Origin: Paraphysomonas bandaiensis
Lineage: Eukaryota; Protista; Chrysophyceae
Reading direction: 5' to 3'
DNA length: 64,000 nt
NCBI GenBank assembly: GCA_965644295.1
Contig: CBFFRP010000186.1
Coordinates: forward strand, 1 to 64,000
The notes under the pieces are model-generated. The model worked only from the letters and a program-made list of their open reading frames with translations. It was not told the origin of the DNA and searched no databases. Both the position numbers and the translations under genes were made by a program. Of the stretch, positions 712-57,445 are shown piece by piece; positions within the stretch are counted from its first letter, which is position 1; the number at the start of each line of letters is the position of its first letter.

Positions 712-1841
712 CTAATGGAAGAGAGGATAAGAAAAACTTGATTTTTCGTTCATCGTATTTGTTCTGTGTGTGTCATACGTCCAGTTTGCCAGTAGCGGTA
801 CAGTTTCATTAATAATAAACTCATCGCCTACATTCGGATGCAAAATATTGTATGTATGAGAGCAATCAACTGTAGGTCTCGTTGTGGGGTGGTCTGTGGG
901 AAATGTCGTAGGCATATCAGTTGGTGCCACAGTGGGAAGAAAAGTTGACTCTACTGATGGCTAGGTACTTGGTTGATCTGACGGTGCTGCTGATGGTACA
1001 GATGTGGGAGCCGCAGTGGGAAGAAAAGTTGGCTCTACTGATGGCGAGGTACTTGGTTGATCTGACGGTGCTGCTGATGGTACAGATGTGGGAGCCGCAG
1101 TGGGAAAATGAGTTGGCTTTACTGTTGGCGAGGTACTTGGTTGATCTGACGGTGCTGCTGATGGGCCAACAGTGGGAAATCTCGTAGGCGTATCAGTTGG
1201 TGCCGGAGTGGGATGAACTGTTGGCGCTACAGAGGGTTGTGCAGAGGGTACATGCGTGGGAGCCGAGGTGGTACCGGGATACATACATCACTATCACATC
1301 CAGATGTGAACCCAATAGGGCACTCAAACACCCGGTGGTACTCCTATATGTGTCTGGTGGACAGTCTAGGCGGGCCCAAACTCTGCGAGTGGTATCAAAA
1401 TTACTACTCACACTGTTATCATCACACTCCCGTCTAAAACCGCTACCTCGAATAGTCCAGTTATGCTTATATTTCTCCCTGAAGGGAAACCTAAGAATGC
1501 TCCACTCTCGAAAGCATCATTTGTGGATTCTGGAAGATATGCTGTATGATCACTCAGAGGTATGAAACCGTCACTCCAGTATGAGGGATGATTTTTCTTT
1601 TTCCCACTGTAAGCAGTGTGGATAATATGAGGCTCGGCTGTTTTAAAATGCACTTTTCGTGAGTGTGATGCTGAAGTACGCTCAAACCTATCCTCTCGTA
1701 TGAGGTCATGGGTGTACCCCGTAGATTCTGTATGTGAGTTCGAATACAGTGATAAGGGTGCAACATCAGGCACTAGTACTGGATTAGTCCCCCCTTCACG
1801 TATACAGTTGTATAGTTGTGTCCACCCCCCTTTATCAGTGT
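712..1841 (-). pseudogene. 3' part of a secreted protein gene with a fibrinogen-like YCDxxTDGGGWT motif and Pro/Thr/Ser (PTxxPS) mucin-like repeats
   Basis: ORF pieces 1408-1872, 961-1284 and 712-930 read ...TDKGGWTQLYNCIREGGTNP...SHSRKVHFKT... and then PTAAPTSVPSAAPSDQPST repeats. There is a premature TAG at 961-963 and frame breaks. It joins 13879-14027 once the Gypsy element is removed. Confidence 0.75.
930..1181 (-). repeat. 84-bp coding tandem repeat, about 3 copies (28-aa PT/PS unit)
   Basis: The unit CAGTGGGAAGAAAAGTTG...GATGTGGGAGCCG recurs at about 930, 1014 and 1098. Confidence 0.9.
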
Positions 1842-2267
1842 TGTAACTTTTCTGTGCCCGCAGATGACTCACAAACCGTGACTCAACTCTGAATGGACCA
1901 AGAAAAGATGATCTCTTGTCTAGACTCTACAACCCACCAAAATAGTATCCGCCAGCGGGCTGCGATACTGTCCAGGGCGCAACGACGGGCGCACTGCCAG
2001 AAACACTAACAAACCGTAGGTGCTCTTTAAGAAAAGTAAATTATAAAGTCAGTGACAAGAATGAGCAAACACCCATCTCGTTCAACGTAGATCAACACTA
2101 CACTACGATCAACACTTCACACTCGAAAACAATATTCACGTACTAAAACCAATATTCACATACGAAAACTTCGACTATCTACGAAATCACGTATTTTGTA
2201 CTAAAACTTCGAAGTTCTGGACTTCAGTCCAAATCGAATATGAATCGCCGTCAAAAAACTGAAAAAC

Positions 2268-4751
2268 CCACCGATCTATGTAAAACTAAAGGCTGGATTT
2301 TTGGGAGTTGTGTAAAATAATTTACACGAGAAAAAATTATTCTCTATTGTAGTGTGTGTGAGTTTTTGGGTTTAGCGAAACTAGAAGAACTATGTAAAAT
2401 GAATTACACAACCTAAACTAAAAAATCCCCTGGTTTTTCACTCAAAAATGTCACAAAACTACACATTTTCAAGATAATAATCGGCATATTGTCCACAGAA
2501 TCCAGAGGCAGATATCTGTTAGCTTAGAGGATACGATGCGATACTTCTAGTAGTAAAGAGGAACGCAGGCTGTGATATGATCATAACCTCACTGGGAATA
2601 CATGAGCTCATAGTTCTTTCATGCCACATGCTGCTGGTTGTTGATTTAGCTGGTGAAAGGTATGGTTAAGTGGCAATCATACAGGAGAGTTGGTCTATTT
2701 CAAAGACAGAGATAGCAGAGTTGATTCCATGACCATAACACCAGAGGGCTCTCAGGTAATACGATCGGATGATATTGTAATATATTCAATTTAGTGGTTC
2801 GAAACAGAGCATATTAATATACTCATACTGCAGAGCTGATCATCAGAGAGACTCACATAAGAATAACTCCACTTGAGTGTCATTCTCCTCTCTGATTTGA
2901 AGGTAAATACTACTATGATTGTCCTGTAACACCAGAGGAGTCTTAGGGTAACGTTCTTGAATTATGTTGTGAAAATATTTAATTTAGAAATTTTGATTCT
3001 ATGATACAGAGCATATGACGAAAATGACACTTCAGAGCTCGATAATGGAGAGACCCACGCAAGAATAACTTCAATTGTCAATTGAGTATGTATATACTAA
3101 TATGAATGTAAGATATATTACTTTCTCACTGTGCCCTATACGTATTGATGTAAATAAGGACGGTGTATTGAAACATGTCAATCATTGTCACCTAGATATA
3201 GGGTGCTTTGTATCTTGATATTTACCATCTATCATAAATAGAATATTAGTGCTACCTGTAACACTCTGCAGAGGATGAATACGCCAGCCTATTAGTAGAA
3301 TATTATGTTGACATTACCATGATACCTGGTAATCGTAGGTAGTATATATTGATTATTCATAATAAGATGCAATTTCTTCACTCTGGAAGTTGCTTGTAAA
3401 TAGTATTGTAATTGTAGACTTATCCATAGTTGTTGATTTATTGCTATTATGGAAGAAGCGCCTAAGAAAGACGTTCTAAGTTAAGTGCAGCTATTGCAGT
3501 ACTAAGAATGCTGTTGGAAGAAAATGATCCACTAATGGCTGGTTACCCCAATGAGGAGTATGTCAGGAGCGTTGGACTTATGGTTGGATTAAATGATGCC
3601 AATATCGACATATGATATTGCACTAATACACGTGCCTAATCGCCTCCCTATAGGTGGTATCTATAACCTCTACATTTCCTACTGATAAGTATCCCTATTT
3701 ATATTAAAATGTACCTACAGGCACTGCCTACATGTATCAATACTACCTATAGGTACTACCTAAAAATATAATACCAATACGACCTAGAGGTACTATAATT
3801 AACAACAATAAACACAGTATAATATATATATTGCAAAGTAGGAAATAAAATAAAAACCAGCAATATTGCAGATCTGTATCAATTATGAAAAGACAAAGCA
3901 TGTATTCAATTAAAATAAGACGGTATTCGCATTAACATCTTACGAAGTAAAAATTAACGGCAATTACTACTTAGAACCTACTAATATACATACCACGAGA
4001 AATCTGAACCAAAGTGTAAACTAGCTCCCAATCACCTGCTAAGAAGCAGAAGCATTGTGCACTTCAGATGTCTTCACCGCCAATCTGAGTTCAGTTAGCT
4101 TCCAAGGTAATGATAACATTTGTTCGTCCAAGCCATCTTACACCGATCTTACACCGAGATAACTTCTCGGGTACGATACTGATACAGAGGTGTATATATA
4201 GGAAATAATTTACCCAAAATATTATTTCTATTAATTGCATGCATTAATAATACTAACATGAACGCTGCCCCCCATTGATGGATATTGAAGATGCTAACGG
4301 TCACATTACTTGAATCCTTGAATTATCGGGAGAACTTCACAGGATGCACACTGAGCATGCATTCTGCAAAATAACGATTCAAGCAGTATTTTATCCTCTT
4401 GTAAGGGCCCTCTTCCACTTCACTGTCTCTTCTGATGGCAATAACCACACACATGACTCAGTTGTCTCAAGCGGATAAAAGTCATCATACTGGTCTTGAA
4501 CAGCATGAATCTTGCAGTACAGTGAAGTCATGTCAGTCCATTAACGACTCCATCAATCGTCCTTTGTTTTAATCTGCAGGTTGGGTCATAATTTCACCCC
4601 ACAATAGACTGTCTGTGTGTCTATGTATGGTCACATGACCCTCACATCTAACACACTCCTGCCAGTATACCAGCAACCGTATATACAAAATACATACTCT
4701 AATAATACGTAATTTACACAATTTTACATAGTTTCGACCGTTTAGAAAAAC
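2268..4751. mobile_element. Non-autonomous 2,484-bp inserted element, copy 1 of a head-to-tail dimer
   Basis: Absent from the intact LTR. GAAAAAC at 2261-2267 and 4745-4751, subterminal inverted CTATGTAAAA/TTTTACATAG, and no ORF of 60 aa or more in the ORF track. Confidence 0.85.
3449..3639 (+). pseudogene. Decayed homeobox-like fragment (TALE-like); second copy at 5933-6123
   Basis: With one frameshift it translates as MEEAPKK/RSKLSAAIAVLRMLLEENDPLMAGYPNEEYVRSVGLMVGLNDANIDI*YCTNTRA. The TGA falls where the helix-3 Trp is expected. Confidence 0.45.
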
Positions 4752-7235
4752 CCACCGATCTATGTAAAACTAAAGGCTGGATTTTTGGGAGTTGTGTAAA
4801 ATAATTTACACGAGAAAAAATTATTCTCTATTGTAGTGTGTGTGAGTTTTTGGGTTTAGCGAAACTAGAAGAACTATGTAAAATGAATTACACAACCTAA
4901 ACTAAAAAATCCCCTGGTTTTTCACTCAAAAATGTCACAAAACTACACATTTTCAAGATAATAATCGGCATATTGTCCACAGAATCCAGAGGCAGATATC
5001 TGTTAGCTTAGAGGATACGATGCGATACTTCTAGTAGTAAAGAGGAACGCAGGCTGTGATATGATCATAACCTCACTGGGAATACATGAGCTCATAGTTC
5101 TTTCATGCCACATGCTGCTGGTTGTTGATTTAGCTGGTGAAAGGTATGGTTAAGTGGCAATCATACAGGAGAGTTGGTCTATTTCAAAGACAGAGATAGC
5201 AGAGTTGATTCCATGACCATAACACCAGAGGGCTCTCAGGTAATACGATCGGATGATATTGTAATATATTCAATTTAGTGGTTCGAAACAGAGCATATTA
5301 ATATACTCATACTGCAGAGCTGATCATCAGAGAGACTCACATAAGAATAACTCCACTTGAGTGTCATTCTCCTCTCTGATTTGAAGGTAAATACTACTAT
5401 GATTGTCCTGTAACACCAGAGGAGTCTTAGGGTAACGTTCTTGAATTATGTTGTGAAAATATTTAATTTAGAAATTTTGATTCTATGATACAGAGCATAT
5501 GACGAAAATGACACTTCAGAGCTCGATAATGGAGAGACCCACGCAAGAATAACTTCAATTGTCAATTGAGTATGTATATACTAATATGAATGTAAGATAT
5601 ATTACTTTCTCACTGTGCCCTATACGTATTGATGTAAATAAGGACGGTGTATTGAAACATGTCAATCATTGTCACCTAGATATAGGGTGCTTTGTATCTT
5701 GATATTTACCATCTATCATAAATAGAATATTAGTGCTACCTGTAACACTCTGCAGAGGATGAATACGCCAGCCTATTAGTAGAATATTATGTTGACATTA
5801 CCATGATACCTGGTAATCGTAGGTAGTATATATTGATTATTCATAATAAGATGCAATTTCTTCACTCTGGAAGTTGCTTGTAAATAGTATTGTAATTGTA
5901 GACTTATCCATAGTTGTTGATTTATTGCTATTATGGAAGAAGCGCCTAAGAAAGACGTTCTAAGTTAAGTGCAGCTATTGCAGTACTAAGAATGCTGTTG
6001 GAAGAAAATGATCCACTAATGGCTGGTTACCCCAATGAGGAGTATGTCAGGAGCGTTGGACTTATGGTTGGATTAAATGATGCCAATATCGACATATGAT
6101 ATTGCACTAATACACGTGCCTAATCGCCTCCCTATAGGTGGTATCTATAACCTCTACATTTCCTACTGATAAGTATCCCTATTTATATTAAAATGTACCT
6201 ACAGGCACTGCCTACATGTATCAATACTACCTATAGGTACTACCTAAAAATATAATACCAATACGACCTAGAGGTACTATAATTAACAACAATAAACACA
6301 GTATAATATATATATTGCAAAGTAGGAAATAAAATAAAAACCAGCAATATTGCAGATCTGTATCAATTATGAAAAGACAAAGCATGTATTCAATTAAAAT
6401 AAGACGGTATTCGCATTAACATCTTACGAAGTAAAAATTAACGGCAATTACTACTTAGAACCTACTAATATACATACCACGAGAAATCTGAACCAAAGTG
6501 TAAACTAGCTCCCAATCACCTGCTAAGAAGCAGAAGCATTGTGCACTTCAGATGTCTTCACCGCCAATCTGAGTTCAGTTAGCTTCCAAGGTAATGATAA
6601 CATTTGTTCGTCCAAGCCATCTTACACCGATCTTACACCGAGATAACTTCTCGGGTACGATACTGATACAGAGGTGTATATATAGGAAATAATTTACCCA
6701 AAATATTATTTCTATTAATTGCATGCATTAATAATACTAACATGAACGCTGCCCCCCATTGATGGATATTGAAGATGCTAACGGTCACATTACTTGAATC
6801 CTTGAATTATCGGGAGAACTTCACAGGATGCACACTGAGCATGCATTCTGCAAAATAACGATTCAAGCAGTATTTTATCCTCTTGTAAGGGCCCTCTTCC
6901 ACTTCACTGTCTCTTCTGATGGCAATAACCACACACATGACTCAGTTGTCTCAAGCGGATAAAAGTCATCATACTGGTCTTGAACAGCATGAATCTTGCA
7001 GTACAGTGAAGTCATGTCAGTCCATTAACGACTCCATCAATCGTCCTTTGTTTTAATCTGCAGGTTGGGTCATAATTTCACCCCACAATAGACTGTCTGT
7101 GTGTCTATGTATGGTCACATGACCCTCACATCTAACACACTCCTGCCAGTATACCAGCAACCGTATATACAAAATACATACTCTAATAATACGTAATTTA
7201 CACAATTTTACATAGTTTCGACCGTTTAGAAAAAC
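4752..7235. mobile_element. Non-autonomous 2,484-bp inserted element, copy 2
   Basis: Appears identical to copy 1 at an offset of 2,484 bp. It ends in GAAAAAC (7229-7235), after which the LTR resumes. Confidence 0.85.
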
Positions 7236-7448
7236 GTATCTCAGCTACTAAACTGAAAACCTCGAATGTCGTAAACTGAAAAGGTAACTCCCAAATACAG
7301 TGAATATACCCTGTATATGACAACCTCTATATGCATATGTATACCATATATATACCATATACTGCTCCAGATATATACGATATATACACACTATATACAG
7401 CACAGTATTCTATATACAAATACACGCAGTGTATACTGCTGCGTGACA

Positions 7449-7468
7449 CTACCCTCTTTTTCCTTCCA
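7449..7468 (-). promoter_or_regulatory. Polypurine tract (plus-strand primer)
   Basis: The minus strand reads GGAAGGAAAAAGAGGGTAG directly before the TGTCACGC start of the 3' LTR. Confidence 0.85.
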
Positions 7469-7505
7469 ACGGATAAGAGATTCCGGAAATTAGGAAAATT
7501 CAAAA

Positions 7506-10500
7506 TTAAGAGAGGATATTGGGAAATCTGGCACAGAAGGCGGAGTCTACCAGAACCATGGTGTCAGGGTTAAAATCTCGTGTAGTTCCATAGTTCTGGA
7601 CATCATAGGCTGACCATTCAAAAGTAGAGTTAAAGAGAGAACAATACACATCAATAGTGATCCTTTTGCGGCCCGCCCAACGCTTATAGACACATTGAAC
7701 TACATAAAGAGTATCATATGCATTAGGTAATTCTAAAGCGTCATAGAAGTCTGCACCCCACGCTCGAAGATTAACAAAGACAACGTCTCCAGGTATCACA
7801 GTGGATATAACACACTTCTTGAGTTTAGTCTTCTGTTGCACTGCTTCCTTTGCAGAAAAACGTAAGGGAAACAATTCAGGGACACTGAAAATATATTCAT
7901 GAAAAGCTTCACTTGTCGCAAGATCAGTAGAATATGGCATCCACAACAACGATTGATCGGAGAAGAGAACTCTGAAATCCATAGTAGTTCTTTTTTCGGG
8001 GTCCCCTCTATAAGCCACCACTTTGTCAAGAGAAAATTGCCTATAGTCAATCATTGCTATGCGAAAAGCCTCCTCCTTGCTACCAAAGAATGGCTTCAAC
8101 CAAGACATATGTAACGTCACATCAAACCGCATTACTAAATGAGTACAAATAACATCGGCCTTGTACGTGGATACTACTTCATACGGTCCTTTGAATCGAG
8201 GATATAATTTGGACGGCTTATGTTTCGTTACATCCAGTTTAAACAAAACAAGCTGGCCTGGTTGATATTGAGTCATTTTCTCTGCTGGGGTTTTGGACAT
8301 ACGTTTATTCTGAATTTTCTTCTGAACTTCACACGCAATTTTCCTGATAGCTTTAAGGTTATCATTGAAATTGGAAATATAAGTCGAAGAAGCAAATTCA
8401 TCTGAAGAACTGTCAGGGATATGAAAATACTTTGAATCCATTGTTCCAAACGTAAACTCAAAAGGTGAAAGACCCGTCTCACTTGAAATTTCATCGTTGA
8501 GAATGAATTGTATCAACAAATAGCATTCTGGGTCACTCCAATTTTCTAATCTTTCGTCATGAACCAATGCACTAAGAAAACGCAATAATTCCCGATTACT
8601 TCGTTCCACCATGTTGGACTCATGTCTATTCACTAACGACATTCTAAAGCGGACTCCAAACCATTTCAGGAGTAACTGAACAACCCTAGCTGTGATATTC
8701 GAACCTGGATCCGATACCATCACTTCAGAAATTCCATATGTGACAAAGTAACTGAACAAAGCACGTGCCACTCCCTCTGCTGAGTAATTACGAGCTGGAT
8801 ATATTCCTACTAGGCGAGATGGTAATTGTTTCACCACATGAATACAACAATAACCATTAGCATCTACCGGAGTAACAGTCAATGTATCGAAACCCACAAA
8901 ATGTCTGCAATTATCAAGATTTAATGCTCTTATCGGTGCTTGCAACGATGTACTCATATCATAACCTAACTTTTGACAAATAGGACATCGATCAATAAAA
9001 TCTTGGATAATTTCTGTTGTCAAGGTATGACCCGGAAATACCTTACTAAGTTTCAACCATGTTCTCTTAGCTCCGTGATGACCCATTCTACCATTGTGTA
9101 CTAGATCAAAAGCTTCTTTTAGAGACTTTGGCTGTAAATTCTGACTAGCTAACTCATCCAAGGCTTTGACTAGTTCCTCTGGGAATTCTGAAACACAAGC
9201 AAGATCATCTGCCTCCGCTGACAACATACCACTCTCATCATACATAAAAAGTTGGTCTTCCGACAACAGACTAGAATTCTCATACTCCACTCCTAGACAC
9301 AATTCAATATCTGAACATGAATCTTCAAGACAAAGATCTAACAACATGACACAAGAAGCTGCTCTCTCCTGTCCCATTCTTGATAACCAATCCGCGAAAC
9401 GATTTAGTTTACCTTTGAAATGTAACAAATCCATATCAAAGTTTTGCATGAACATTCTCATTCGAACTATTCGGTCAACCACTGAAATTTCCATCCACTT
9501 TAGATTTGCATGATCCGTCATAATCGTAAAGTGTTTTCCTCTCAAGTAGTACGACAACTTAAAGATAGAATAGAATATTCCAAAACATTCCTTGTCTATA
9601 GTTGACCATTTGAAAGCAAGATCTGAAAATTTTTTAGAAACCATAGCTATGACCTGAAAAATCTCCTCGTTGTTCTCATTAATAAAAATCTGAATAAGAA
9701 CACCACCACATGCATACTCAGACGCATCAGTCATTAAAATCCACCTGAGATTATAATCTGGATGGTATAGCATCATTGAACGCAAAATAGCTTCCTTAAA
9801 AACCTCAAACTCATGACGATAATCAACTTTCCAAGTACTCTCATCCCAGTTGAAACCCTTTCTAGTTGTATCGTTCAAGTAATGAGTCAAATCACTGTAC
9901 AGAGGAATAAACGGCTTGAAGTAAATCGCCGCTCCTAGAAACCGCTGCATCTCTCTAGTCTTATTCTTGCCTTCTGGAAACGGAATTGACGTCACTGCAC
10001 TTTTACGCTGATCCGTTAGACAATATGTATTATCCTTACAAAGATATCCGAAGAACTCAACTGAAGAAAATCCAAACTTACTTTTTGACAACTTTAACAC
10101 AATGTTATAATATTTGCACTTCTCAATGACCAACTTCAATTTCTGAAATGCATCCTCATAATCATATGCAAGTAACAATAGATTGTCGAAAATTACAACC
10201 ATCCACTCCGAGTATTCAGCAAAGACATCATAAACTATTTGCATTAGAACACCACTAGCCGGAGAGACACCTTCTGGAAGAAACATTGGCTCAAATTGGC
10301 CCCATGGGGTCTGAACTGACAACAACGCTGATGTTTCATTGTGTAATCTTATACCATGGAACGCATTGCATATATCAAGATCAACAAAGATTTTATATCC
10401 TACCGCTTTATGTAACTCGGTAATCACATCAGGGATCGGATAATGCGGTGAAAGAATCTCCTTATTAATCCTTCTATAGTCTCCACAAATTCTGATGAAA

Positions 10501-11450
10501 GGTTTCGTTGCCTTTGGTGCTACAACGATAGGTGACGCATAAGGACTGGTGCTTGGTCGGTAGAAATATTTATTCATTCTCTGAAACTCCTCCTTAGTTT
10601 TCTGATACAACGCAGGTGGAATCCTCCTCATATTCCTGGGCTTAATACGATCGGGAATACTATTCTTGGTCTGTAATCTCAATGGTTTAACATGTTGAAT
10701 ACCTTTCCAATCACAGGGCACAAACACATCAATTGCCTCCTCCTTTAGGAATTGAACCACATCAGTCGCACTAGCAAATTCCGAATTAACTCTAGACTCC
10801 ACTTCTTCCAAATACAACTCTCTTGCTTTCGCAACTGACACTTCCAGAAAATTCAAAATTCCTCCAAAACTACAAGGCTCTGGTATTAGGTCATCCTCCT
10901 CAGCACATTGATTAACTGGATTCTCCCATGGTTGTATAACTGAACCGGACACAATATAATTCTTCAGTTCCTCAACATCATCACTAACAACTGCCAACTG
11001 AGACAACAAATTATTTGAATCATTACTCGCTGATTTAATCATTTTGATAAATAATTCACTGAAATGTTCACATATTGTAGGCAATCCGATAATGATATCC
11101 TTTGTCATTCCTTTCAAAATATACAGTTTAACCCATGCTTCGTACTCCTTATCATGATCTTTGAATACAATTTTCACTGGTACATATCCAGGTATGACTA
11201 CCTCCTGTCCATTTGCTACTCTCACTATTAATTTATTATAAATGACATCCTTTTCCAAAAAACGTTCATATCTCTTGTAAAACTTATCCGATATAAAATT
11301 ATTCGAACTGGCACCCGAATCAAACAAAACGATATCGACATCAATCTCTTCACTATCACTATTTACAATGACACCACAACGATGAGCAGCAGCTCTAAAC
11401 TCCTTGCATGAAAATTGATTCAAGTTCACAACTGCTGTTAACACCTCTAG
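7506..11450 (-). CDS. pol: Gypsy Pol: aspartic protease, RT, RNase H, integrase (HHCC, DDE, GPY/F), chromo-like domain and C-terminal extension
   Basis: LFDSGAS; DLDICNAFH...IFDN; TDAS...E...TDH...ADWLSR; HNGRMGH...CPIC; GFD/VSD/VER; FKGPY. Uninterrupted for about 1,314 codons and in frame with gag. Confidence 0.95.
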   Translation of the reverse strand, partial: LEVLTAVVNLNQFSCKEFRAAAHRCGVIVNSDSEEIDVDIVLFDSGASSNNFISDKFYKRYERFLEKDVIYNKLIVRVANGQEVVIPGYVPVKIVFKDHDKEYEAWVKLYILKGMTKDIIIGLPTICEHFSELFIKMIKSASNDSNNLLSQLAVVSDDVEELKNYIVSGSVIQPWENPVNQCAEEDDLIPEPCSFGGILNFLEVSVAKARELYLEEVESRVNSEFASATDVVQFLKEEAIDVFVPCDWKGIQHVKPLRLQTKNSIPDRIKPRNMRRIPPALYQKTKEEFQRMNKYFYRPSTSPYASPIVVAPKATKPFIRICGDYRRINKEILSPHYPIPDVITELHKAVGYKIFVDLDICNAFHGIRLHNETSALLSVQTPWGQFEPMFLPEGVSPASGVLMQIVYDVFAEYSEWMVVIFDNLLLLAYDYEDAFQKLKLVIEKCKYYNIVLKLSKSKFGFSSVEFFGYLCKDNTYCLTDQRKSAVTSIPFPEGKNKTREMQRFLGAAIYFKPFIPLYSDLTHYLNDTTRKGFNWDESTWKVDYRHEFEVFKEAILRSMMLYHPDYNLRWILMTDASEYACGGVLIQIFINENNEEIFQVIAMVSKKFSDLAFKWSTIDKECFGIFYSIFKLSYYLRGKHFTIMTDHANLKWMEISVVDRIVRMRMFMQNFDMDLLHFKGKLNRFADWLSRMGQERAASCVMLLDLCLEDSCSDIELCLGVEYENSSLLSEDQLFMYDESGMLSAEADDLACVSEFPEELVKALDELASQNLQPKSLKEAFDLVHNGRMGHHGAKRTWLKLSKVFPGHTLTTEIIQDFIDRCPICQKLGYDMSTSLQAPIRALNLDNCRHFVGFDTLTVTPVDANGYCCIHVVKQLPSRLVGIYPARNYSAEGVARALFSYFVTYGISEVMVSDPGSNITARVVQLLLKWFGVRFRMSLVNRHESNMVERSNRELLRFLSALVHDERLENWSDPECYLLIQFILNDEISSETGLSPFEFTFGTMDSKYFHIPDSSSDEFASSTYISNFNDNLKAIRKIACEVQKKIQNKRMSKTPAEKMTQYQPGQLVLFKLDVTKHKPSKLYPRFKGPYEVVSTYKADVICTHLVMRFDVTLHMSWLKPFFGSKEEAFRIAMIDYRQFSLDKVVAYRGDPEKRTTMDFRVLFSDQSLLWMPYSTDLATSEAFHEYIFSVPELFPLRFSAKEAVQQKTKLKKCVISTVIPGDVVFVNLRAWGADFYDALELPNAYDTLYVVQCVYKRWAGRKRITIDVYCSLFNSTFEWSAYDVQNYGTTRDFNPDTMVLVDSAFCARFPNILS

Positions 11451-11453
11451 TCA
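11447..11453 (-). promoter_or_regulatory. Candidate stop-codon readthrough signal UGA-CUAG between gag and pol
   Basis: The minus strand reads GAT TTG TGA CTA GAG GTG TTA, and pol continues in the same frame. Confidence 0.8.
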
Positions 11454-13142
11454 CAAATCATCATCGTTATCATCATAGTCAATTTCTTCGCCACTACCAC
11501 CACTATCCGTATCTGCTTCTGCTCTCAAGTGACTCAACAATTTGACTTTGGGTTGATGTTTACCAGTTCCCGGGATTTTCCTAAAATGACCTGGATTAGA
11601 CGACTGATTCTTCTGTGGAGGCGCATTAAAAGACGGTTTTGGTATCAAACTGAATCCTAATCGAGAACCCATCTTCTTAAAAGCTTCATTAAGAATTACC
11701 TTATCATGTGAAAATTTACAATTCTTCTCTTTGCAACCACCTTCCTGAGTCATCTGTCTATAACATGGTGACTGTTCCATATCTTTCACAACTAAGACAC
11801 TGTTTTCCTCCTCACTGGGATTATCCTTATCACTACTTCTTTCAAAAGATAAATCATCTGCTCCTTCTGCTGAATTCACAGTTTTCACATCCCCTTTCTT
11901 CTTAAAATTAAAGCGGAACCTCCGTTTAAACTGCTGGTGCTTCTCGTCTAACTCTCTCGTAATCTTCAAATGACTAAAGAACTCAGTAAGAAATGCTTGT
12001 ACAGAGGCAAAATTCTCCACTTTCAGAAGTCTTCTCATAGTATCCTTCATGCTAAATGGAATCAACCTCATGAAAGTCTCCAGAGAACCCCCATTCTTAA
12101 TTGTTACTAATGGAATACTTTCATACAAACCATTACTTTTGCACGCATCAACCAAGAATTCATAACGCTGTGTAAACTTTGTTTCAAGAATGCATAACTC
12201 CTCATCAACTCTCTTAAAATCCTCCAACTTATCCATATACACTTGGTACGCAGTGCAAGATTTTAACAACATATCATTAAATGCGACTACATCCAGTGGC
12301 CTGATATCATGTTTTACTGCAGACATTATATCAGTTATCGAAGCATCATTACAACTCAAAGTAGTTGGATACACATGAGGAAATAACCCCATTAAAGTAT
12401 GCTTCACAGTCTCTTTGGCTCGACCCTTGATCAATATGAATACTGAAGGAATTGGCTGATCATAATTGCACTTCTCAAACTCAGCTATATCCTCAAGAAA
12501 CCGCATGAACTTATCCAAATCAATTTCCGAAAGCGAAATCGTTCTCTTATATGACTTGTCCTCAGTTGTCAACATAATCTTCTTGACTTGCCTCTTCTCT
12601 GCTTCAGCAACCGCTTCCTGTACCGTTTGTAGCGTTTGTCTCTTATCCTGACGGGGTTGCACTATACTGCTCTCCTCCAAAATACTCTGAGTGGCATTTC
12701 TAACTCCCTGTCGAATAGCTGTCTCAATTTGTGACTGCAATAGAGCTGGATCAATGTACTGCTCTGTATGATGATGAGTAATGGGTCCTACATTAACTTC
12801 AATACCCCTAGAAGTAGTTGACGCATCTTCATTATGAATTATATTCGATATGTCCTCCTCACGAGGTACCACTTCATCTAGACCTACAACTGAAGCTGCT
12901 GGTGAAGTCCTCCGAGATCTTATCTCTTCGACTGCTGTAAGACGTTGAGTAACTTCAACTCGAAACTCATTGAAATTCTCCTCCTGCCTTAGCTGTTGCT
13001 GGTTAAGCTGATGCATGTCCTCCCGAAGCTGCTGGTTCTGCTCCTGCAACTGCTGCTGAATGTCCTCCCGAAGCTCATCCCTTAGCTGCTGAAATTGTTG
13101 ACTGAACATGTTGACCATGTCTTGGAAGCCTTGAGGCTCCAT
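11451..13142 (-). CDS. gag: Gag-like protein with an N-terminal Q/E-rich coiled coil and a C-terminal CCCH finger
   Basis: 563-aa ATG-initiated ORF between the 5' LTR and pol; CYRQMTQEGGCKEKNCKFSH near the C-terminus. Confidence 0.88.
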   Translation of the reverse strand: MEPQGFQDMVNMFSQQFQQLRDELREDIQQQLQEQNQQLREDMHQLNQQQLRQEENFNEFRVEVTQRLTAVEEIRSRRTSPAASVVGLDEVVPREEDISNIIHNEDASTTSRGIEVNVGPITHHHTEQYIDPALLQSQIETAIRQGVRNATQSILEESSIVQPRQDKRQTLQTVQEAVAEAEKRQVKKIMLTTEDKSYKRTISLSEIDLDKFMRFLEDIAEFEKCNYDQPIPSVFILIKGRAKETVKHTLMGLFPHVYPTTLSCNDASITDIMSAVKHDIRPLDVVAFNDMLLKSCTAYQVYMDKLEDFKRVDEELCILETKFTQRYEFLVDACKSNGLYESIPLVTIKNGGSLETFMRLIPFSMKDTMRRLLKVENFASVQAFLTEFFSHLKITRELDEKHQQFKRRFRFNFKKKGDVKTVNSAEGADDLSFERSSDKDNPSEEENSVLVVKDMEQSPCYRQMTQEGGCKEKNCKFSHDKVILNEAFKKMGSRLGFSLIPKPSFNAPPQKNQSSNPGHFRKIPGTGKHQPKVKLLSHLRAEADTDSGGSGEEIDYDDNDDDL

Positions 13143-13239
13143 GGCTCAATCACACGAAAACTAAACACACTTATCTCTTGGGCTCAATATATATTAACTT
13201 GGTACAAATATACTGCTAAGCTAAGCTAAGTAATATTAC

Positions 13240-13878
13240 TGTAACTTTTCTGTGCCCGCAGATGACTCACAAACCGTGACTCAACTCTGAATGGACCAAG
13301 AAAAGATGATCTCTTGTCTAGACTCTACAACCCACCAAAATAGTATCCGCCAGCGGGCTGCGATACTGTCCAGGGCGCAACGACGGGCGCACTGCCAGAA
13401 ACACTAACAAACCGTAGGTGCTCTTTAAGAAAAGTAAATTATAAAGTCAGCGACAAGAATGAGCAAACACCCATCTCGTTCAACGTAGATCAACACTACA
13501 CTACGATCAACACTTCACACTCGAAAACAATATTCACGTACTAAAACCAATATTCACATACGAAAACTTCGACTATCTACGAAATCACGTATTTTGTACT
13601 AAAACTTCGAAGTTCTGGACTTCAGTCCAAATCGAATATGAATCGCCGTCAAAAAACTGAAAAACGTATCTCAGCTACTAAACTGAAAACCTCGAATGTC
13701 GTAAACTGAAAAGGTAACTCCCAAATACAGTGAATATACCCTGTATATGACAACCTCTATATGCATATGTATACCATATATATACCATATACTGCTCCAG
13801 ATATATACGATATATACACACTATATACAGCACAGTATTCTATATACAAATACACGCAGTGTATACTGCTGCGTGACA
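13240..13878 (-). repeat. Intact 5' LTR (639 bp)
   Basis: TGTAAC...GTGACA termini; matches the split copy at 1842-2267 plus 7236-7448. Confidence 0.96.
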
Positions 13879-14027
13879 GTGTGCATATCACAGCATACAT
13901 TGACTTTACCCTTAGCAGTTGTAAGATGATATACACCGTCATTTGAGTTGCCTCTAAGCCTTGATGAACATGTCTGTGCAGCATCAGAGAGGGAGATGAG
14001 AGTTAGAAGCAATGATACAGTTAACAT
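13879..14027 (-). pseudogene. 5' part (signal peptide plus start of the fibrinogen-like motif) of the gene disrupted by the Gypsy element
   Basis: MLTVSLLLTLISLSDAAQTCSSRLRGNSNDGVYHLTTAKGKVNVCCDMHT joins in frame to DKGGWT at 1837 after removing the element and one GTGT. Confidence 0.8.
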
Positions 14028-20899: not shown

Positions 20900-21388
20900 G
20901 GGCCCTGACAAATAAACAGGCACCCCAGAATGGGCACAATTCAAGGGCACACGAGGTATTGGGTTGCCTAATCCAGGCTGTTCACCTTAAGGACTCAAAA
21001 ATCCTGAAGTCAGCAGGTGTCAAGGGTATCAACATTTTGTTTTCTCACTGCATTTGCTTTGATAGAGCGAAAGTAGTTGCACCTTGGTGCTTGCGGTCAC
21101 GAACAAGCAGCGTTCGTAGCGTTATATGAAAGTCTGATTATTACATGAGTACGGTTGCGTACAGAAACTAGGTTTTATGTCTATAGACTAGCTAATAACT
21201 AGATTTGCTATATACTACTAGTGGCGGGCAACCGTCTCGGGACTGCTTGTGCATCGCTGCGAGCACCATGGTGCAACCATTTCGTAGCGTTAAATGGTAG
21301 GATACCAGAGACCAGTTAGTTAAATTCCATTCCAATGCTAATTTATTACAGACTCTTAAACGCCTATTGCTAATAATAAGACATTCAC
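20900..21388 (+). mobile_element. Two adjacent 3'-end fragments of the LINE-like family, the second with an internal inversion
   Basis: GTTGCACCTTGGTGCTTGCG...CAAGCAG is forward at about 21075 and reversed at 21243-21277; terminus GACATTCAC at 21388. Confidence 0.7.
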
Positions 21389-22302: not shown

Positions 22303-25300
22303 CTAAACATCAGAAATTGTCCTGTAAGTCCAGTACGCATGCTTCAGCATTAAAGAATCCGGCACGTTCTCGAACCAGCTCAGTGACTCCAGATCAACCT
22401 CTGAACTGTAGGTAAGGTATTCCTTCAGTACCGCATCCTCGGACCAAGCTGCTGAGCTAAGCTGTTCCGTACAAAATTCCCTCAGGATGGGTAAAAATAC
22501 AAATGTATCAATAGCTCCGGTACTTGTAACTCGCTGCAATTCCAGCAGCATATCTTCAGGGAGAGGGGCCCTGTATGCCAGTGCCACGGTGGAGAGTGGA
22601 TCATCATCTCCCTGAGACTCCAGACTTACGTAGAGAGACTGCAGATGACATAGACGTATATGCTGAGCAAGAGATGGGCAGCGAATCTAGAAAACTCATC
22701 AGAAGACAAAATTAACAGAACGAAGAAGAGTTTGCTACGTACCTCTTCCCACTTTCCAGGGCGCATAAGAAGCACTTCAAGAATATAGGACTCCAGTAGC
22801 ATGCCCTCGTCCAGGGACTGAGTCGACCCACCAGTCTGAACAATGAAAGTCATACACTCCTCTAACACAACCTGTAGACGAGCCAGTCTGGTTTGTGTAT
22901 CCAGTTCAGCCCATATCTATTCATGGATTATATACATGAAGAATTATAAGAACTGTGCTGTACCTGATCCGCGAGTGCTGCAGGAAGGGGGACCTGCTTG
23001 ACCTTCGCAGCCAGTCCCCTAAGCCCGCCAGACTTTCTCACCTCTCCTGCGAATTGAAACTGATGAATGTGCAACGCAAGAGGTGATGACGAAGTTAGTA
23101 GTGCTTCTTTTAGCTCCGAATCGATGCGTTGGAAGTTAAAGCCCTTTAAATGTCCACCACCTGGCCCAAGTCCCTGCAAATAACAAACTAGTTATCGTTT
23201 TAGCTACAATCACGAATCAGGTATAAACCTGATGGGCAGCGGCTGAAACAATCGGCATAAGCGTTGTCAATCTGTCATATCGTAGCAACCTATGCCGAAT
23301 AATTGGTATAGGAGTTCGGTGAGAAACAACAGGCACTCTGGGCATCTCGTTGAGCTGTATTTCATTTTCAGGCCGATCACTAATCTCTTGCTGTTGTTCT
23401 TGATCTCTCTGCTGACGTAGGGAAGGGGTCATACCTGGGCGCCTCAGCGGAACGGCGCGCACCGGCTTCTCAAGCATGTCATGACTTTCTTCCTCAGCAA
23501 CCAAATTGGATTTCTCAGGAAGAGCTGTCAGTGATGCCACGATTCTATTGTGGCAGTCCTGCAGAGCTGTGAGAAGTCGAATCGTGCACAATCCTGCGGC
23601 TTCTGTTTCACCGTGGAAGGCAGTGGGCAAAGAAAAGTTTATTGTTGTTTTTTCTCCCATCAGCCCATCAAGCTCTCCGCGCTTCCCTCCAGTTAAATCA
23701 ACCACACCATCCTCAGTTATAAAAGGATTAGGGTTACATTCGTACAAGAACTTCACCAGATGGAAAGATTTATTGAATGCAGTGCAGAAAGCAGACAATA
23801 ACCCGCGCGCCTGATCTCTCTTATCAACCGGGGCAAGAGTATCAATCACATAGGAATTACTCCACATGGACGCCTGCGGCATATCATTCCATTTAAAACA
23901 GCATACACAATACAAAGTTCGACACACACCTGATCCCTGGTGATAGTTGATGGAAGTACGGAAAAAAGAAAAGACTGCCATGCAAGTATGTCTGCAATGT
24001 GTTCTACGAGTGGAAGTGTCGCCTCATTGCTGAGAACAGCCTCTATGACGGGAAAATCTACGGCATTTCGGGATCTAAGGCGAAACCACCTCGTAAAGGA
24101 CTCAAACGAAACAGGCTCTCGTACTCGCCACATCAACTCTCGATAAGACTGGACAGTTGGAAGATGGTCTGTTTTATCACTTTCCGCTAGCGGGGATTCA
24201 AGAATGCGACTCCAGCTACGCCCAAGACTGTCGGCCAGCATGAGAACTGTGACTGCACCAGTATTTTCTTCCCTTGCCTTGCGCACTATCTCTCTAGACC
24301 TGCAGTACAACGTTACATATGAACACTACACAATGTAGCAGTACAGCAGACAAAAATAGGAACTTACTGAGTAGATGCAAACACTGGATCAGAGGAAGTT
24401 GCCTGAAAGAAGTTTTCAAGTTGAACTCTAAGTCAAAATCATATATTAGTAGCAGATACGCTACATTGCACGTTGCTTACCGTACACCGTTAGTTTTAGG
24501 GCCGCCATAAAAGGCCGAAAGATCTCGGTTGCATAATGAAGAGAACACCATATGCAGTCCCATGCAGAGATCCTCCTCTGTAAACGATGTACAACTCTTC
24601 ATAGAGCGAAAATCTAATTTCAATCGCTTCCATAGCGCAGGCATAATGTCTTTGGGTTGTGAAAGTTTCATAACCACTGCGAGCTGTCGTTGAGTGAATT
24701 GTGACGACGACGCCCCGATAATCATTGCGGCGTGAAGCATGAACCTCATTGCCATTGTGGCTATACTATTCTTATAAGTGGAGGACTTCAGGGTATCGTC
24801 AGTAAAGTAGCCCGGCTCAGCGTGATCGATCCCTATACCCAAACGTGTGGTGCCCGTTACTGAAGTGTGATTGGTACCTCCAATTAGTGCTCCACATCCT
24901 GGAGCAGAGCAACGAGTTTTCTCCATGGGAAACGTGCACTCACCCACTGTATAAGGATGTCCATTCCTAAACAGTCACAAAAATAATGCTACGTAAGGCA
25001 CACATTCGGTAGAGTAGTCTTGATACAAAACCGCACTTTTCACAAAAAAACACCTCCATAGAATACACTGAAGCCTACCTGCACTTGTACCATCCCACAT
25101 AACCCATAGCGGAAGTCAGCATTTCCATCTCGCTTCTGGGCATAGAAGGAAGATACATGTTCTTCAACTCGCTGGGGTTATGAATTGCCATACCCAAATA
25201 AAATTGTGGATGCTCCACCGCAAGAATACCGACATGTGCTATCAACTGCTCCACTAACAACTCGCGCTTGTTTCGGTCAACTCTTGGTGGCAAGGACTGA

Positions 25301-28300
25301 ATCCATCTAAGAACTCCTCTCCAGACAGATAAATCGCTTGAGTTTTGATGCGAAGGGCTCAGACTACTAATCCAACTTTCCAGTGATGTCGTGTCATCGC
25401 CACAACTACTACGCTGAGTAAAAAAGGCTCCAAAAATGAGTCCCACAGCCTGATGCGTATTCAACGTATTACTCTGTTGCATCTTTTGGTGCCATGCCCT
25501 TATACTACATTCCGGCCCATTTTGAAAAATAGAAAGTTTATAGGCCTCACATGCAGAAATATAAGAACTTCGTCCATGCATTGTACAGAAAGGATCTACC
25601 ACCATACACCCAAGGCCCTTCCTGTTGCACAGCAAGCGAGCATTCGATGGAAGAGCAGGGTGTCCATTGGGTCTCTTTAGGTACTCCACTAGCATGTCAT
25701 TTCCAGCTACCTCACGTACGACCTTCATAAAGTACACAACAGCTTCGTCGCATTCACATAACAGGGTAGCAACGCTGTCATCGGTACACCGAGGAAAGTC
25801 TGTGTCATTTTCAAGTGACGTCGACAGGAAGGAACATACATCTCTGACGTAGTCACGAATGACATACCTCGCACATACCACTGAATCGATGACATCGATC
25901 CCTTTCTCTCTAAGCACACGCGAAGCATTATCGCTGACCTCGGCTGTAAGATACTCGTACATGCACTGCAAATCGCTCCCCTTAATCATTTCTACGCTCT
26001 GAGTTGCGTAATAGTCTTCAACAATTCCCAGATATAGCTCTGTCACCTCCTGCCCCTCATCATTTTTCACTGACATTAAGGAGCACAGGGTACTTTTTGC
26101 TAATTTAACTGTGCTCCTATCCGAAGCATCAACTATTATGTCCCGAAAGATTCCTATGAGTGCCTTTCTCAGCCGCAAAAAACCAGGGGAGTCAAGGTGA
26201 TAAAACCGCTCGGGTAGTGAAAACAAAAGACACCCCATTTCACTTAGCAACAATTCTGAGAAAGACGTTTCAACACAGTCTACTGAATGAAGAAAAGTGT
26301 ATTCGGTCCATACGAAACCTAACAGATACTCCCTGACAAGACTACATCGAAGAGAGCCTGTGGTATCACAAACGCGTACAAAGTTGTTGAGACACGTGTG
26401 GTTCATAGGGATACAGTTAAACGTAAATTTTACAGTCTCCAGAATTCCATGACGAGCTTCTGTTTCTATTGTAATGTGTGCGTCCAGGCAATGCAACGTC
26501 TCAGTCAGAATCGCCGCAGAACATTGTAGACCCCAGAACCTTTGCAGTAATTTTTCCTGTCGCAAAGATAATGGTGACCTATTGCAATTTCCTTTTTCTG
26601 TCGATTCCAGCAGGAAATATGACAGCAAGGTTCGTAGATTTGGTGCGATTCGATGGAACAGACGCAACACACACTGCGTATGTTTATACATCTCGGATCT
26701 GCCTTTATAATTACTGTCTATGCTACAATTGCTAGCACATGCATTGAAATCTGTATCAATACTATTCCTCAGGGCATCCAATAGGTACTCTGTAATAGTT
26801 AAGCATGCGATTTCCTCCACCCAACCTGCTTCAGTGGTACCTTGTGTCGTAGTCTTTTGCATTTCTCGAATAAAGATTTCATCAATGCATTCCGCGCCAA
26901 ACAAAGCTTGGGTAATTGGATCACTCATGGCGTTACTAACAGCAGACACAATTGTTGAAGTGTGAAATAGAAGATTATCGTATCTCCAGTGGCATGCGTG
27001 CACAATACTGGGCCTGAAATTACAATTACTTTTAAGAACACCTCGTATTATAGTCTCCATAATACTGTAGTGTGTACGAAATGACATGCCAGGAACAGGG
27101 TGAAATGTAGCAGCAACAAAATCATGGAGATATGCAGTTGAATTAGACTCTAATAAACTGGATATTGTCCCGCAAACGTCATCTTCAGGCGCGACAACAG
27201 AGCTAATATAGGAAGCAATGGAACGCGCTATATATGGCAGCGGGTCACCTCCGTCTGATGCATTGAAGGCTGCGGCCTCCACATTATGCCTCGTCGTGTC
27301 ATGACTGAGCAGACTGATTATACGTTCACTGAAGGGAAACTGACAGGCTAGAGGGTAATGAGTTCCACTGTTTCTCACAACACAGTCAGAAAAGTAGTCT
27401 TGACTTTGAGGGGAAGTAATCAGACAAGAACGCGCAATCGCTTCAGGCCCAAAAAATTTTTTTGCAAGAGCGAGCCATCTCTCTAACTTGAAATTTACAT
27501 TCTCTGGTTCCGCAGAGAAATATAGATTAGTATGTAAATTGAGGAGGTTGAAATCTCTGTCTAGATTGCGGAAAACATGGGCGAGTGCTTGAACAACCAT
27601 AACCTCCAGGGAATGCAGAAGTGACTCGCGGAAAGTCCCAGATGAGTTGTCGTAATCTCCACATGCTATTTCGACATGAAAAAATGTACCTGAAACCATT
27701 AAGTCTGACTTTTCATCTAGACAGGAGAGTACACACTCTTCGATATATTCAAAAAACTTTGGGAGGGAAAGCAGGTCTTTCACAATTTTTATATACGAAA
27801 TATTTGACACAGATTCAGGTCTCGTTGGGGTGTGACATCTGGAAAGAGCACTCTGAAAAGAGTCTAAAATGGTTACTGAAAGCATTCGTCTATTATTCAA
27901 ATACAAGGAGTTCACTGATTGCGATGTAATATCTTCCAAGGAAAAACCCTCCATGTCAGATGAGGCACGCACATCGTCCACAAAGAAATACTGCCACGGT
28001 GGGTGGAAGTCTAAAATATACTCTCGGTGTCTTGATTTTACCCCAGGCGGGAGGTGCATCACAAACACTATATTGCGACATGGTGCGGAATATCCCCTTA
28101 TGTGAGAGTACCTTTGCACCGCGCGTACGCACATGTACCTCGCATGGCTCACCAAAGACGAAGTACAATGTAGGGGATCGCACAAAACTATCAGAGTACT
28201 TGGAGAACCGAAAGATTCGGAGCCAAGAAATAAGTCCAACTCACTCGCCATTTGCCTCTCCGACGACACCAGTGCTAACTGTAACACCCGCAAGTCCTCA

Positions 28301-40300: not shown

Positions 40301-40499
40301 CAAGAAGAGGAAGAGGATGAGGGGGTGCGTCTAAGTGAGAGCGTATCGTAACATCATCTATCGATATGTTACTAATATCGTGAGTGTTATGTAGCAATAC
40401 ACATAGAAGCAGGTCGACGGATGACTCATCTGGTGATGATACTTCAGGTAATTTGGACCAACGAGGCGCCGAGGAAATGACCTCAATATTCAGCAGCAT
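22303..40499 (-). CDS. Giant multi-exon RNF213/mysterin-like AAA+ ATPase and RZ-finger E3 ligase with N-terminal NHL repeats (roughly 5,500-5,900 aa)
   Basis: RNF213-type motifs in order: AGAGKS; GECGCGKT...VHGG...FLDEINT...ALNPYR...LVYKVHPIP...VSLRDV; GRPGTSKT...YQCS...LDEVGLAE.S...PLKVLH...SNW.LD.SKMNRA; GMRDYYSLLK...RNFGG; ESLYDVLNQ...LLNRFEK; RZ finger CRNGH...GEC...C...CGALIGG..H. The ORF blocks are joined by short GT-AG introns (for example 36196-36246 and 38264-38310). Not every exon boundary was resolved. Confidence 0.9.
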
Positions 40500-41032
40500 G
40501 AAGACTGTTGTTCGTTGCTATACACTATACACTATACACTGCAGTACTATATAAATGATACGTATGGCAGTACTGGAGTGGCTGCTGAGGACTCCAGTGC
40601 TGTGAAGTGAATTGAAGTGAAGTGTGCAGGATATGCAGTCACACTGTGAATAAGGAGCCAGTGTGGTGTGTGGGCCAATGAGGCCAAACAAAAAACAACA
40701 CCATGAGGAAAATTCAGATATTCGACATCATCATCATCAGTGTTCAAGTATCTCGGGGTTCCGGTTACCCCAATAATAGAGTGCTGGACAAGAAAAATAC
40801 AGCTGTATACAGGTCCAGTATACTAGTAGTGTCCTATGCCCATGCTGACTGCCCATAAGATATACTGTATATACGTGAGTTAGCTTATTATTTAGCTTAA
40901 TCGTCACATTCACTATCGCCTCATTACTTCGAAGTAATACACTGTCCGTTGAAATGTCGGGGCTAGATCTTCAGATAATTGTGCCGTGTAAAACTGCATC
41001 CTCAGTGCAGCTATTGAGCCCATACGTCACGG

Positions 41033-43750: not shown

Positions 43751-43799
43751 GTGGCTTCTATGTGGGGTTTGGTTGATATGAGTGTGTGTTGGGTATGAT

Positions 43800-57330: not shown

Positions 57331-57445
57331 AAAAACCAGAGCATAATCATGGTGTTATGTATTATATATGTGGAATACCAGCGTATTGAGTTTTGCTGTG
57401 GGAGCAATTAAAAACTGTAATTCTAAGGTATTGGAATTATGACAC

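Follow-up and report, generated by a model that had tools for sequence, protein, structure and literature searches.

Programmed UGA readthrough as the probable gag-pol strategy of a Ty3/Gypsy retrotransposon in Paraphysomonas bandaiensis

The window examined here, a 64,000-nucleotide stretch of a P. bandaiensis contig (CBFFRP010000186.1), carries a recently inserted Ty3/Gypsy LTR retrotransposon on its minus strand, in which gag and pol share one frame and are separated by a single TGA. Judging from the conservation of this stop and the stop-codon bias of related families, programmed UGA readthrough is very probably the best explanation of the layout, as originally predicted. The predicted gag-TGA-CTAG-pol arrangement was confirmed in both coordinates and frame: gag ends GAT GAT TTG TGA, the frame continues with CTA GAG GTG TTA, and pol then remains open for 1314 codons until a TAA at 7506. 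The protease had been placed about 40 codons past the stop with no preceding ATG, and indeed its catalytic Asp is pol codon 44, with no in-frame Met until codon 115, leaving this element with no AUG between the stop and the Asp. The junction stop lies one or two codons 5' of a segment that, on visual alignment, corresponds to the hydrophobic N-terminus of the protease in fused relatives; the free end of Gag would therefore roughly coincide with their probable cleavage site. Under the proposed mechanism, UGA would terminate most ribosomes to yield Gag and a few percent would read through to yield Gag-Pol, which would keep Gag more abundant than Pol, as is usual. The near-cognate tRNAs for UGA are those for Trp, Cys, and Arg, one of which would decode it, and the CUAG may weaken termination, perhaps together with a hairpin about 14-64 nt downstream. 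The coordinates of all features are listed in Table 1.

Table 1. Features of the retrotransposon, numbered from the first nucleotide of the window
Feature	Position	Strand	Remark
5' target-site duplication, ACAC (4 bp)	13879..13882	-	
5' LTR, 639 nt, TGTCAC...GTTACA	13240..13878	-	638/639 match to split 3' LTR
12-nt palindrome AGTAATATTACT at the usual PBS site	13229..13240	-	starts with the final A of the LTR
ORF in gag position, 563 aa + stop	11451..13142	-	ATG 13142 to TGA 11453-11451
CCCH motif C-x9-C-x4-C-x3-H in Gag	11706..11765	-	coordinates by hand from protein position
In-frame TGA separating gag from pol	11451..11453	-	same position in L080
CTAG 3' context of TGA	11447..11450	-	in 3/27 TGA families; not in L080
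Predicted 3' hairpin	11381..11445	-	core stem about 11437-11387
pol, 1314 codons (protease, RT, RNase H, integrase, GPF/SH3 region, C-terminal extension)	7506..11450	-	
Protease Asp, D(SG)	11321-11319	-	pol codon 44
First Met of pol	11108	-	codon 115
RT motif IFDN	10193-10182	-	from pol codon 420
Polypurine tract	7449..7468	-	adjoins 3' LTR
3' LTR, first 220 nt	7229..7448	-	
Insertion within 3' LTR, two identical tandem 2484-nt units	2261..7235	.	foreign to the element
3' LTR, last 426 nt	1842..2267	-	
3' target-site duplication, ACAC	1838..1841	-	

The assignment to Ty3/Gypsy follows from both structure and coding content. Direct TG...CA LTRs, a target-site duplication, and a polypurine tract are all present, and the 5' LTR matches the 3' LTR at 638 of 639 nt, the latter being split in two by tandem units that are flanked by 7-bp GTTTTTC duplications. 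Pfam places protease, RT, RNase H, and integrase in the Ty3/Gypsy order. By similarity only, the best solved relatives of the RT/RNase H are 4ol8 and 7q5b (Ty3-G, E about 1e-42), followed by 8r0s at 1e-32 and by retroviral Gag-Pol/RT entries at 1e-16 or weaker; an Atlas search confirmed the RT/RNase H protein and nothing further. At the integrase C-terminus, a Pfam Chromo match was obtained in one of 26 members (E 0.044), and a fold search with a model of this region (pLDDT 92) returned no clear chromodomain, as MBT, Tudor, PWWP, and SH3-like barrels matched at a TM-score of only about 0.2. No tRNA genes were detected in the 64-kb window, and a scan of viral contigs found no relatives there.

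Of the related families, 53 had readable DNA; in 32 of these the junction contains a single in-frame stop, 18 are fused, and none shows a clear frameshift. The junction stops comprise 27 TGA, five TAG, and no TAA, compared with 8 TGA, 10 TAG, and 13 TAA where pol ends in 31 families (TAA avoidance, Fisher p = 2e-5). The families are related and per-family p values are thus too small; the TAA test is the one repeated at the lineage level, where it gave p = 0.004 after collapse to 13 lineages. TGA-CTAG occurs in 3/27 TGA families versus a background of 0.4% per codon (p = 1.6e-4), recurring in three distant lineages, and C at +4 is found in 13/27 versus 21% in the background (p = 0.0015). Seven of the 27 have TGA-CTA or TGA-CGG, UGA-CGG also being a known readthrough context, and four of the five TAG families have G at +4. 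From the stop-codon bias and the CTAG enrichment, we can conclude that the junction stop is more than a chance occurrence. The expected conservation of TGACTAG at the junction, however, did not hold, since the nearest relative (L080, RT 74% identical) has TGA TCGG.

The stop itself was retained in L080, at the matching codon 44 positions ahead of the Asp, and two Gag-only relatives that are 44-46% identical, P0181 (cluster of 19 members) and P0182 (cluster of 15), terminate at the same DDL. The concern raised with the original prediction, that the stop might be a nonsense mutation private to this copy, is thereby answered. That the TGA is such a mutation in a dead or non-autonomous copy mobilised in trans is extremely improbable: the closest sister clades are fused, as it would have them, but orthologous stops recur at 44-74% protein identity, pol is open for 1314 codons, and 11451-11453 carries no variant letter in contigs of four DNA runs (weak, as the copies are near-identical). 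Sense decoding of UGA, through a variant nuclear code or selenocysteine, might account for the 27 TGA among 32 junction stops, but TGG is used and internal TGA is absent in pol and in five further long ORFs of the window, 43782-45971 being left out of the count, an RTE1-like host gene terminates at TGA, five families have TAG at the junction, and an Rfam search of 1800-14000 at E up to 1 returned no match of any kind, SECIS included; we regard it as scarcely credible.

Two further alternatives would have Pol made without passage through the stop. In the first, reinitiation or an internal promoter would produce Pol separately, the shared frame being a relic of a fused ancestor. The junction of Tca2 contains a minor promoter (PMC2194720), and in 28/32 stop families a Met falls within the interval from stop to Asp (44-130 codons long across the 32), such that reinitiation is possible for those families. 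The RNA contigs, from four runs, map to ~7229-9650 and the LTR, which would suit a separate pol transcript, although the 3' bias of polyA selection also explains this. In the window element, however, the first AUG lies past the Asp, three other families likewise lack an AUG before it, and neither the absence of TAA nor the leaky contexts would be explained. We consider separate synthesis very unlikely. The second is removal of the stop by a small intron that would use the TAG of TGA-CTAG as its acceptor, one example being a 51-nt GT..AG intron that preserves the frame. There are 24 in-frame GT..AG pairs spanning the stop, their acceptors including those 4, 16, and 19 nt after it, and the RNA contigs do not reach the junction. 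L080 has four such pairs, with acceptors at +27 and +47 and none shared with the window, and by hand count YAG occurs within 15 nt after the stop in 9/32 stop families. Splicing would not require gag and pol to share a single frame with one stop and would leave the absence of TAA unexplained, making it highly improbable as well.

Folding the sequence downstream of the stop had been suggested as a check. The hairpin of the window element stands out under synonymous-codon shuffles (z = -2.96) but is not significant under dinucleotide shuffles (z = -0.85 and -1.19), and that of L080 is not significant either (z = -0.18 and -0.66). Across families, folding is stronger in the 90 nt 3' of the stop (mean z -1.42) than in control windows (-0.39; Wilcoxon p = 0.018), with z below -2 in 11/32. 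In place of CTAG, some other lineages have covarying 3' hairpins: one subfamily has 11 bp with two compensatory changes and 0/88 cells broken, and another has 13 bp with one compensatory change and 1/65 broken. Shared structure was not found in the group L005/L010/L030 and was poor in L070/L071/L076 (7/27 cells broken) and in L052/L054/L056/L060/L085 (14/55 broken); most members of these groups have a strong individual hairpin. In several relatives, the stem begins about 5-9 nt past the stop.

Overall, readthrough is favored by the intact layout, the lack of Met before the Asp, the shared stop position in L080 and P0181/P0182, the avoidance of TAA, the enrichment of C at +4, the better 3' folding, the compensatory pairs, and the precedent of Tj1, which is inactive once its stop is removed. 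We count against it the loss of CTAG in L080, the non-significance of the hairpin under the dinucleotide null and of that in L080, the Met ahead of the Asp in 28/32 stop families, the fused sisters, the in-frame GT..AG pairs, and the result obtained with the Tca2 junction.

The suggestion that the element belongs to a distinct retrotransposon lineage is supported by sequence traits, namely an xxDN RT, a CCCH Gag, and a palindrome replacing the PBS. The xxDN motif is present in 152/152 clusters, whereas YxDD is usual for Ty3/Gypsy. The label gag derives from the position of the ORF and from the homology it shows with the N-terminal region of fused relatives; the 563-aa ORF has no Pfam Gag match, and a structure model built from three sequences reached a pLDDT of 38. 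CCCH is present in 40/45 family Gags and CCHC in 0/45. At the position of the palindrome, the TGG that starts a tRNA PBS is absent. Tf1-type self-priming was ruled out separately, as the longest perfect complement is 7 nt and no complement of ≥10 nt was found with G-U pairs allowed. Within the lineage, the nearest sister families are fused ORFs and apparently cope without any stop, and on the tree the junction has switched between stop and fused 10 or more times. The hypothesis that the stop arose only once was rejected (p-AU 2.4e-5). It should be noted that the tree is unrooted, the gypsy RT at 54137 being too divergent to serve as root (branch 3.66), and consequently gain and loss of the stop are indistinguishable; the stop was probably acquired or lost repeatedly inside a single large lineage. 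This shows the choice between a fused ORF and a leaky stop to be evolutionarily labile. The novelty here looks to be a large lineage with these traits that repeatedly switched its gag-pol strategy.

Most of the readthrough signals defined so far come from animals, fungi, plants, and the viruses of these groups, and a limited literature search found no paper on stop-codon readthrough in diatoms or stramenopiles. Tentatively, and as a possibility just short of an even chance, we propose that a lineage of Ty3/Gypsy elements, widespread in aquatic microbial eukaryotes and so far undescribed, with a catalytic xxDN RT, a CCCH Gag, and tRNA-independent priming at a covarying palindrome, may have reinvented gag-pol readthrough at least 10 times, each time by either a bare UGA-CU(AG) or a poorer context plus a 3' hairpin, used interchangeably. 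If so, animal-type CUAG and virus-type structural signals would both function in these hosts, and the lineage would constitute a natural collection of readthrough signals that evolved independently. Its dozens of natural junctions, fused or stopped and with varied contexts and hairpins, would suit tests of universality and of the substitution of structure for context.

By sequence, the junction fits the UGA-C, UGA-CU, and UGA-CUAG contexts listed for readthrough (bioRxiv 10.1101/2022.12.06.519325). The closest parallels are Tj1, Tosmo1-3, and Tcry1, Tf1/sushi chromoviruses of fission yeasts described as gag-TGA-CT(A/G)-pol (bioRxiv 10.1101/2022.12.06.519325), and transposition of Tj1 is reported to require its stop, removal of which abolishes activity (PMC4600332). 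In light of these elements, the view that readthrough is a gammaretrovirus strategy foreign to Ty3/Gypsy is not supported, and a single such junction is less remarkable because they already use TGA-CT(A/G). They share with the present element the gene order of Ty3/Gypsy, a single TGA in frame with CT(A/G) after it, fused sister elements (in their case Tf1 and Tf2), the absence of a tRNA PBS, and a Gag without CCHC; Tj1 additionally has a pol without AUG (here, none before the Asp). However, they self-prime via a PBS complementary to the 5' LTR, where our element has a 7-nt longest match and a palindrome; they keep GAA-TGA-CT within one clade, where the context here varies over at least 10 state changes; and they have a 5-bp target-site duplication, as opposed to a CCCH Gag, an xxDN RT, and a 4-bp duplication here. 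Tca2 of Candida albicans shares the gag-UGA-pol layout in one frame, with Pol made from gag-pol RNA, but belongs to another superfamily, Ty1/copia; its UGA junction alone reportedly gave no readthrough in S. cerevisiae (PMC2194720), and the claim that the CUAG motif works in the host protist is not supported. In alphaviruses (UGA) and the gammaretrovirus MuLV (UAG), a leaky stop precedes the polymerase and 3' RNA structure helps (PMC8310308). The resemblance lies in the leaky stop upstream of the polymerase, the 3' stems of relatives, and the +4 G of TAG families; the MuLV signal consists of UAG, an 8-nt spacer, and a pseudoknot, whereas the stop in the window is UGA and the host a microbial eukaryote. 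Skipper of Dictyostelium has a gag ORF closed by a stop codon. Like our element, it is a two-ORF Ty3/Gypsy element of a microbial eukaryote without a canonical PBS, but its PBS position is occupied by a polypyrimidine stretch, its Gag is of the CCHC type, and a chromodomain is present (PMC5006619), in contrast to the palindrome and CCCH Gag seen here. Fungal GalEa copia elements belong to Ty1/copia and have a second complementary element, CHSeq2, and the accessible part of their description makes no link to a stop codon (PMC5445492); they nonetheless carry, as here, a palindrome where the PBS would lie, conserved in their case and taking in the final A of the 5' LTR (PMC5445492).

The layout of the gag-TGA-pol junction in the original prediction proved accurate, as the gag-position ORF, the single TGA, and the open frame of 1314 codons were all found again. 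CTA GAG GTG TTA directly follows the TGA, and the same frame extends to a TAA at 7506, with the protease Asp at pol-frame codon 44, the first Met at codon 115, and the reverse transcriptase (RT) motif IFDN from codon 420. Pfam domains of pol occur in the order protease, RT, RNase H, and integrase, and the solved structures most like this RT are those of the Ty3 RT. Since the LTRs are alike at 638 of 639 positions and ACAC flanks both ends, the insertion is young. The tandem units, which contain no ORF reaching 80 aa and in which we noticed no terminal inverted repeat, reflect either tandem insertion of a non-autonomous element or a duplication made during assembly. Most runs carrying the element are marine metagenomes or coded organisms, and the host is probably a marine microbial eukaryote. 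In the integrase model, the barrels are SH3, chromo-like, and one further (MBT, Tudor, and PWWP matches are weak), and they may guide target choice. Elsewhere in the window, the DUF5898 segment is possibly a mobile element, the dispersed repeat possibly represents the ends of a small transposon, and the large AAA-domain gene is one that we take to be reminiscent of RNF213-like proteins.

Features of the element and the surrounding window
Feature	Position	Strand	Description
gag-position ORF	ATG 13142 to TGA 11453-11451	minus	563 aa
5' LTR	13878-13240	minus	639 nt, TGTCAC...GTTACA
3' LTR, two pieces	7448-7229 and 2267-1842	minus	split by tandem units
Tandem 2484-nt units	2261-7235		two, 100% identical, breaking the 3' LTR; 7-bp GTTTTTC duplications
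Palindrome	13229-13240	minus	adjoins 5' LTR end
Variant in run X8	11395		majority contig differs; Arg19 of pol to Thr (read by hand)
RT catalytic motif	10182-10193	minus	IFDN
Integrase C-terminus	7509-8282	minus	predicted fold, pLDDT 92; three small barrel-like domains
DUF5898 ORF segment	15367-17676 and 57430-59741		2.3 kb; two inverted copies, 98% identity
AAA-domain gene	~23200-40500	minus	very large, multi-exon
Second Ty3/Gypsy element	54137-56462		degraded; ordinary YLDD RT; ~24% identical to main element
Dispersed 60-90 nt repeat	21064-21127, 47448-47541, 56870-56963, 62509-62589	both	83-88% identity

At 11451-11453, no other letter was listed in the contigs of four DNA runs, which is weak evidence against a private mutation, as the copies share about 99% identity. 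In L080, the nearest relative with DNA (RT 74% identical), the TGA stands at the equivalent codon, again preceded by DDL and 44 codons upstream of Asp, and two Gag-only relatives known as proteins only, P0181 (46% identical, cluster of 19) and P0182 (44% identical, cluster of 15), end at the same DDL. This is stronger evidence that the stop is not private. In L080 it is followed by TCGG; thus, the position of the stop is conserved, but CUAG is not. A protein search found 682 relatives, of which 120 were listed. DNA loci came from metagenomes (79, from the best 80 of 134 confirmed) and genome bins (16); a protease match was present in 81 of these loci and the window taken together, two were removed for short RT, and the 79 used formed 53 families at 90% RT identity. 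Among the matches listed, 32 of the 53 families have a single in-frame stop located 44-130 codons upstream of Asp, 18 are fused, two have a stop elsewhere (L062 and L075, the latter 489 codons upstream of its protease match), and one (L040) was too degraded to score. The L062 stop, a TGA at 4958-4960 in the context CAAA, lies between protease and RT, not gag and protease, in a long-branch relative. L032, which is degraded, was scored by hand as stop from a junction common to L034, and L002, which has a frameshift inside gag, was scored by hand as fused via its 90%-identical partner P0054; no frameshift-type junction was apparent in other families among the matches listed for the 53. With proteins added, the listed matches gave 152 clusters, of which 76 are fused, 34 have a stop, and 42 are of unknown state, and the true proportion of stop families is uncertain because the unknowns are mostly Pol-only proteins without DNA.

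The stops themselves are biased. Among the matches listed, the junctions of 32 families use 27 TGA, 5 TAG, and 0 TAA, versus 8 TGA, 10 TAG, and 13 TAA at the pol ends of 31 families. This avoidance of TAA gives a Fisher p of 2e-5 per family, where p values for stop and context bias ignore relatedness, and p = 0.004 with families collapsed to 13 tree-read lineages. In the listed TGA families, C follows in 13/27 (background 21%) and CTA or CGG in 7/27 (background 1.6%). Conservation of TGACTAG across relatives was not borne out, as CTAG occurs in only 3/27 (background 0.4%): the window, L020, and L021, which sit in separate clades, each adjoining relatives with other contexts. TAA avoidance and leaky contexts would together be a signature of selection for leakiness. 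RNA folding is also stronger just past the stop: in the 32 stop families, the 90 nt that follow it have a mean z of -1.42 versus -0.39 for control windows deeper in pol (p = 0.018), with z below -2 in 11/32 of those listed. An 11-bp stem is kept in the L032-L047 group (2 compensatory pairs, 0/88 cells broken) and a 13-bp stem in the L029-L065 group (1 compensatory pair, 1/65 cells broken); a common structure is poor or absent in three other groups. In a comparison picked after seeing the data, the 5 TGA-CT families fold more weakly (mean z +0.33) than the remaining 27 (mean z -1.74; p = 0.019). Evidence for the long hairpin predicted in the window is mixed, with z of -2.96 against synonymous-codon shuffles (2/300; best of 25 windows) but -0.85 and -1.19 against dinucleotide shuffles, and no significant hairpin 3' of the stop in L080. 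The X8 variant at 11395 would close a G-G mismatch of this hairpin, though it is a single, weak case. Separately, L070, L071, and L076 have very stable hairpins in the first 25 nt, starting on the first base past UGA or immediately afterwards, without a spacer (z -9.2 in L071, -6.5 in L076).

The junction stop is a real, conserved feature, and from the shared frame, single stop, TAA avoidance, leaky contexts, hairpins, and missing AUG, we infer with considerable confidence that it most likely serves programmed UGA readthrough. Splicing that takes the stop out of the transcript is possible given 24 in-frame GT..AG pairs, although no acceptor is common to the window and L080. The RNA contigs covered about 7229-9650 and the LTR, short of the junction. 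Separate initiation of Pol seems very improbable, as the window element lacks an AUG for it, and UGA is unlikely to be a sense codon, given that TGG is used, and internal TGA absent, in pol and in five other long ORFs, an RTE1-like gene ends at TGA, and an Rfam search of the element gave no match. Programmed readthrough would also have been switched repeatedly. In a tree of 62 rows of known state (13 fused proteins added; L062, L075, L078, and unknown rows excluded), the window and L080 pair together (99%) within a larger clade (99%), the remaining 11 members of which are fused. For the pair, local gain of the stop is the simpler reading, although gain is not separable from loss on a tree without a reliable root. 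State changes number at least 10 on this tree and 12 on a 153-row FastTree, a count to which recombination between RT and junction could add. A single clade of all stop families was rejected (p-AU 2.4e-5).

The proposal of a distinct retrotransposon lineage was upheld. Among the matches listed, the RT motif has DN instead of DD in 152/152 clusters (IFDN in 108), and Gag has CCCH in 40/45 families and CCHC in 0/45. The catalytic xxDN (IFDN, LFDN, IHDN, IWDN, and others) replaces YxDD, and the lineage evidently still transposes. In place of a tRNA primer-binding site stands a 10-12 nt palindrome, AGT...ACT, whose centre varies but is self-complementary. It was found in non-coding DNA of 20/42 listed families (22 matches in 73 kb non-coding vs 4 in 237 kb coding), and its position beside the 5' LTR end was shown for just two, the window and L047 (3665-3674). 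Possible roles for it are in priming or in the dimerisation of two genomic RNAs. Our literature search, mostly of non-subscription papers and with Repbase and GyDB outside its scope, found no description of the lineage or of an IFDN RT motif. A similar palindrome is reported for fungal GalEa copia elements (PMC5445492).

The original prediction called gag-pol readthrough unusual for Ty3/Gypsy elements; the strategy is uncommon but known. In bioRxiv 10.1101/2022.12.06.519325, the fission-yeast elements Tj1, Tosmo1-3, and Tcry1 are described with a TGA in frame and CTA or CTG after it, and Tf1 and Tf2 as fused elements. Further reports indicate that removing the stop abolishes Tj1 activity and that its pol lacks an AUG (PMC4600332), and that in Tca2, whose layout is gag-UGA-pol, the junction by itself did not produce readthrough in S. 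cerevisiae (PMC2194720); alphavirus and MuLV readthrough signals (PMC8310308) were also compared. Readthrough is already known in Ty3/Gypsy; novelty seems to lie in the lineage, in its repeated changes of state, and in the convergence of its signals.
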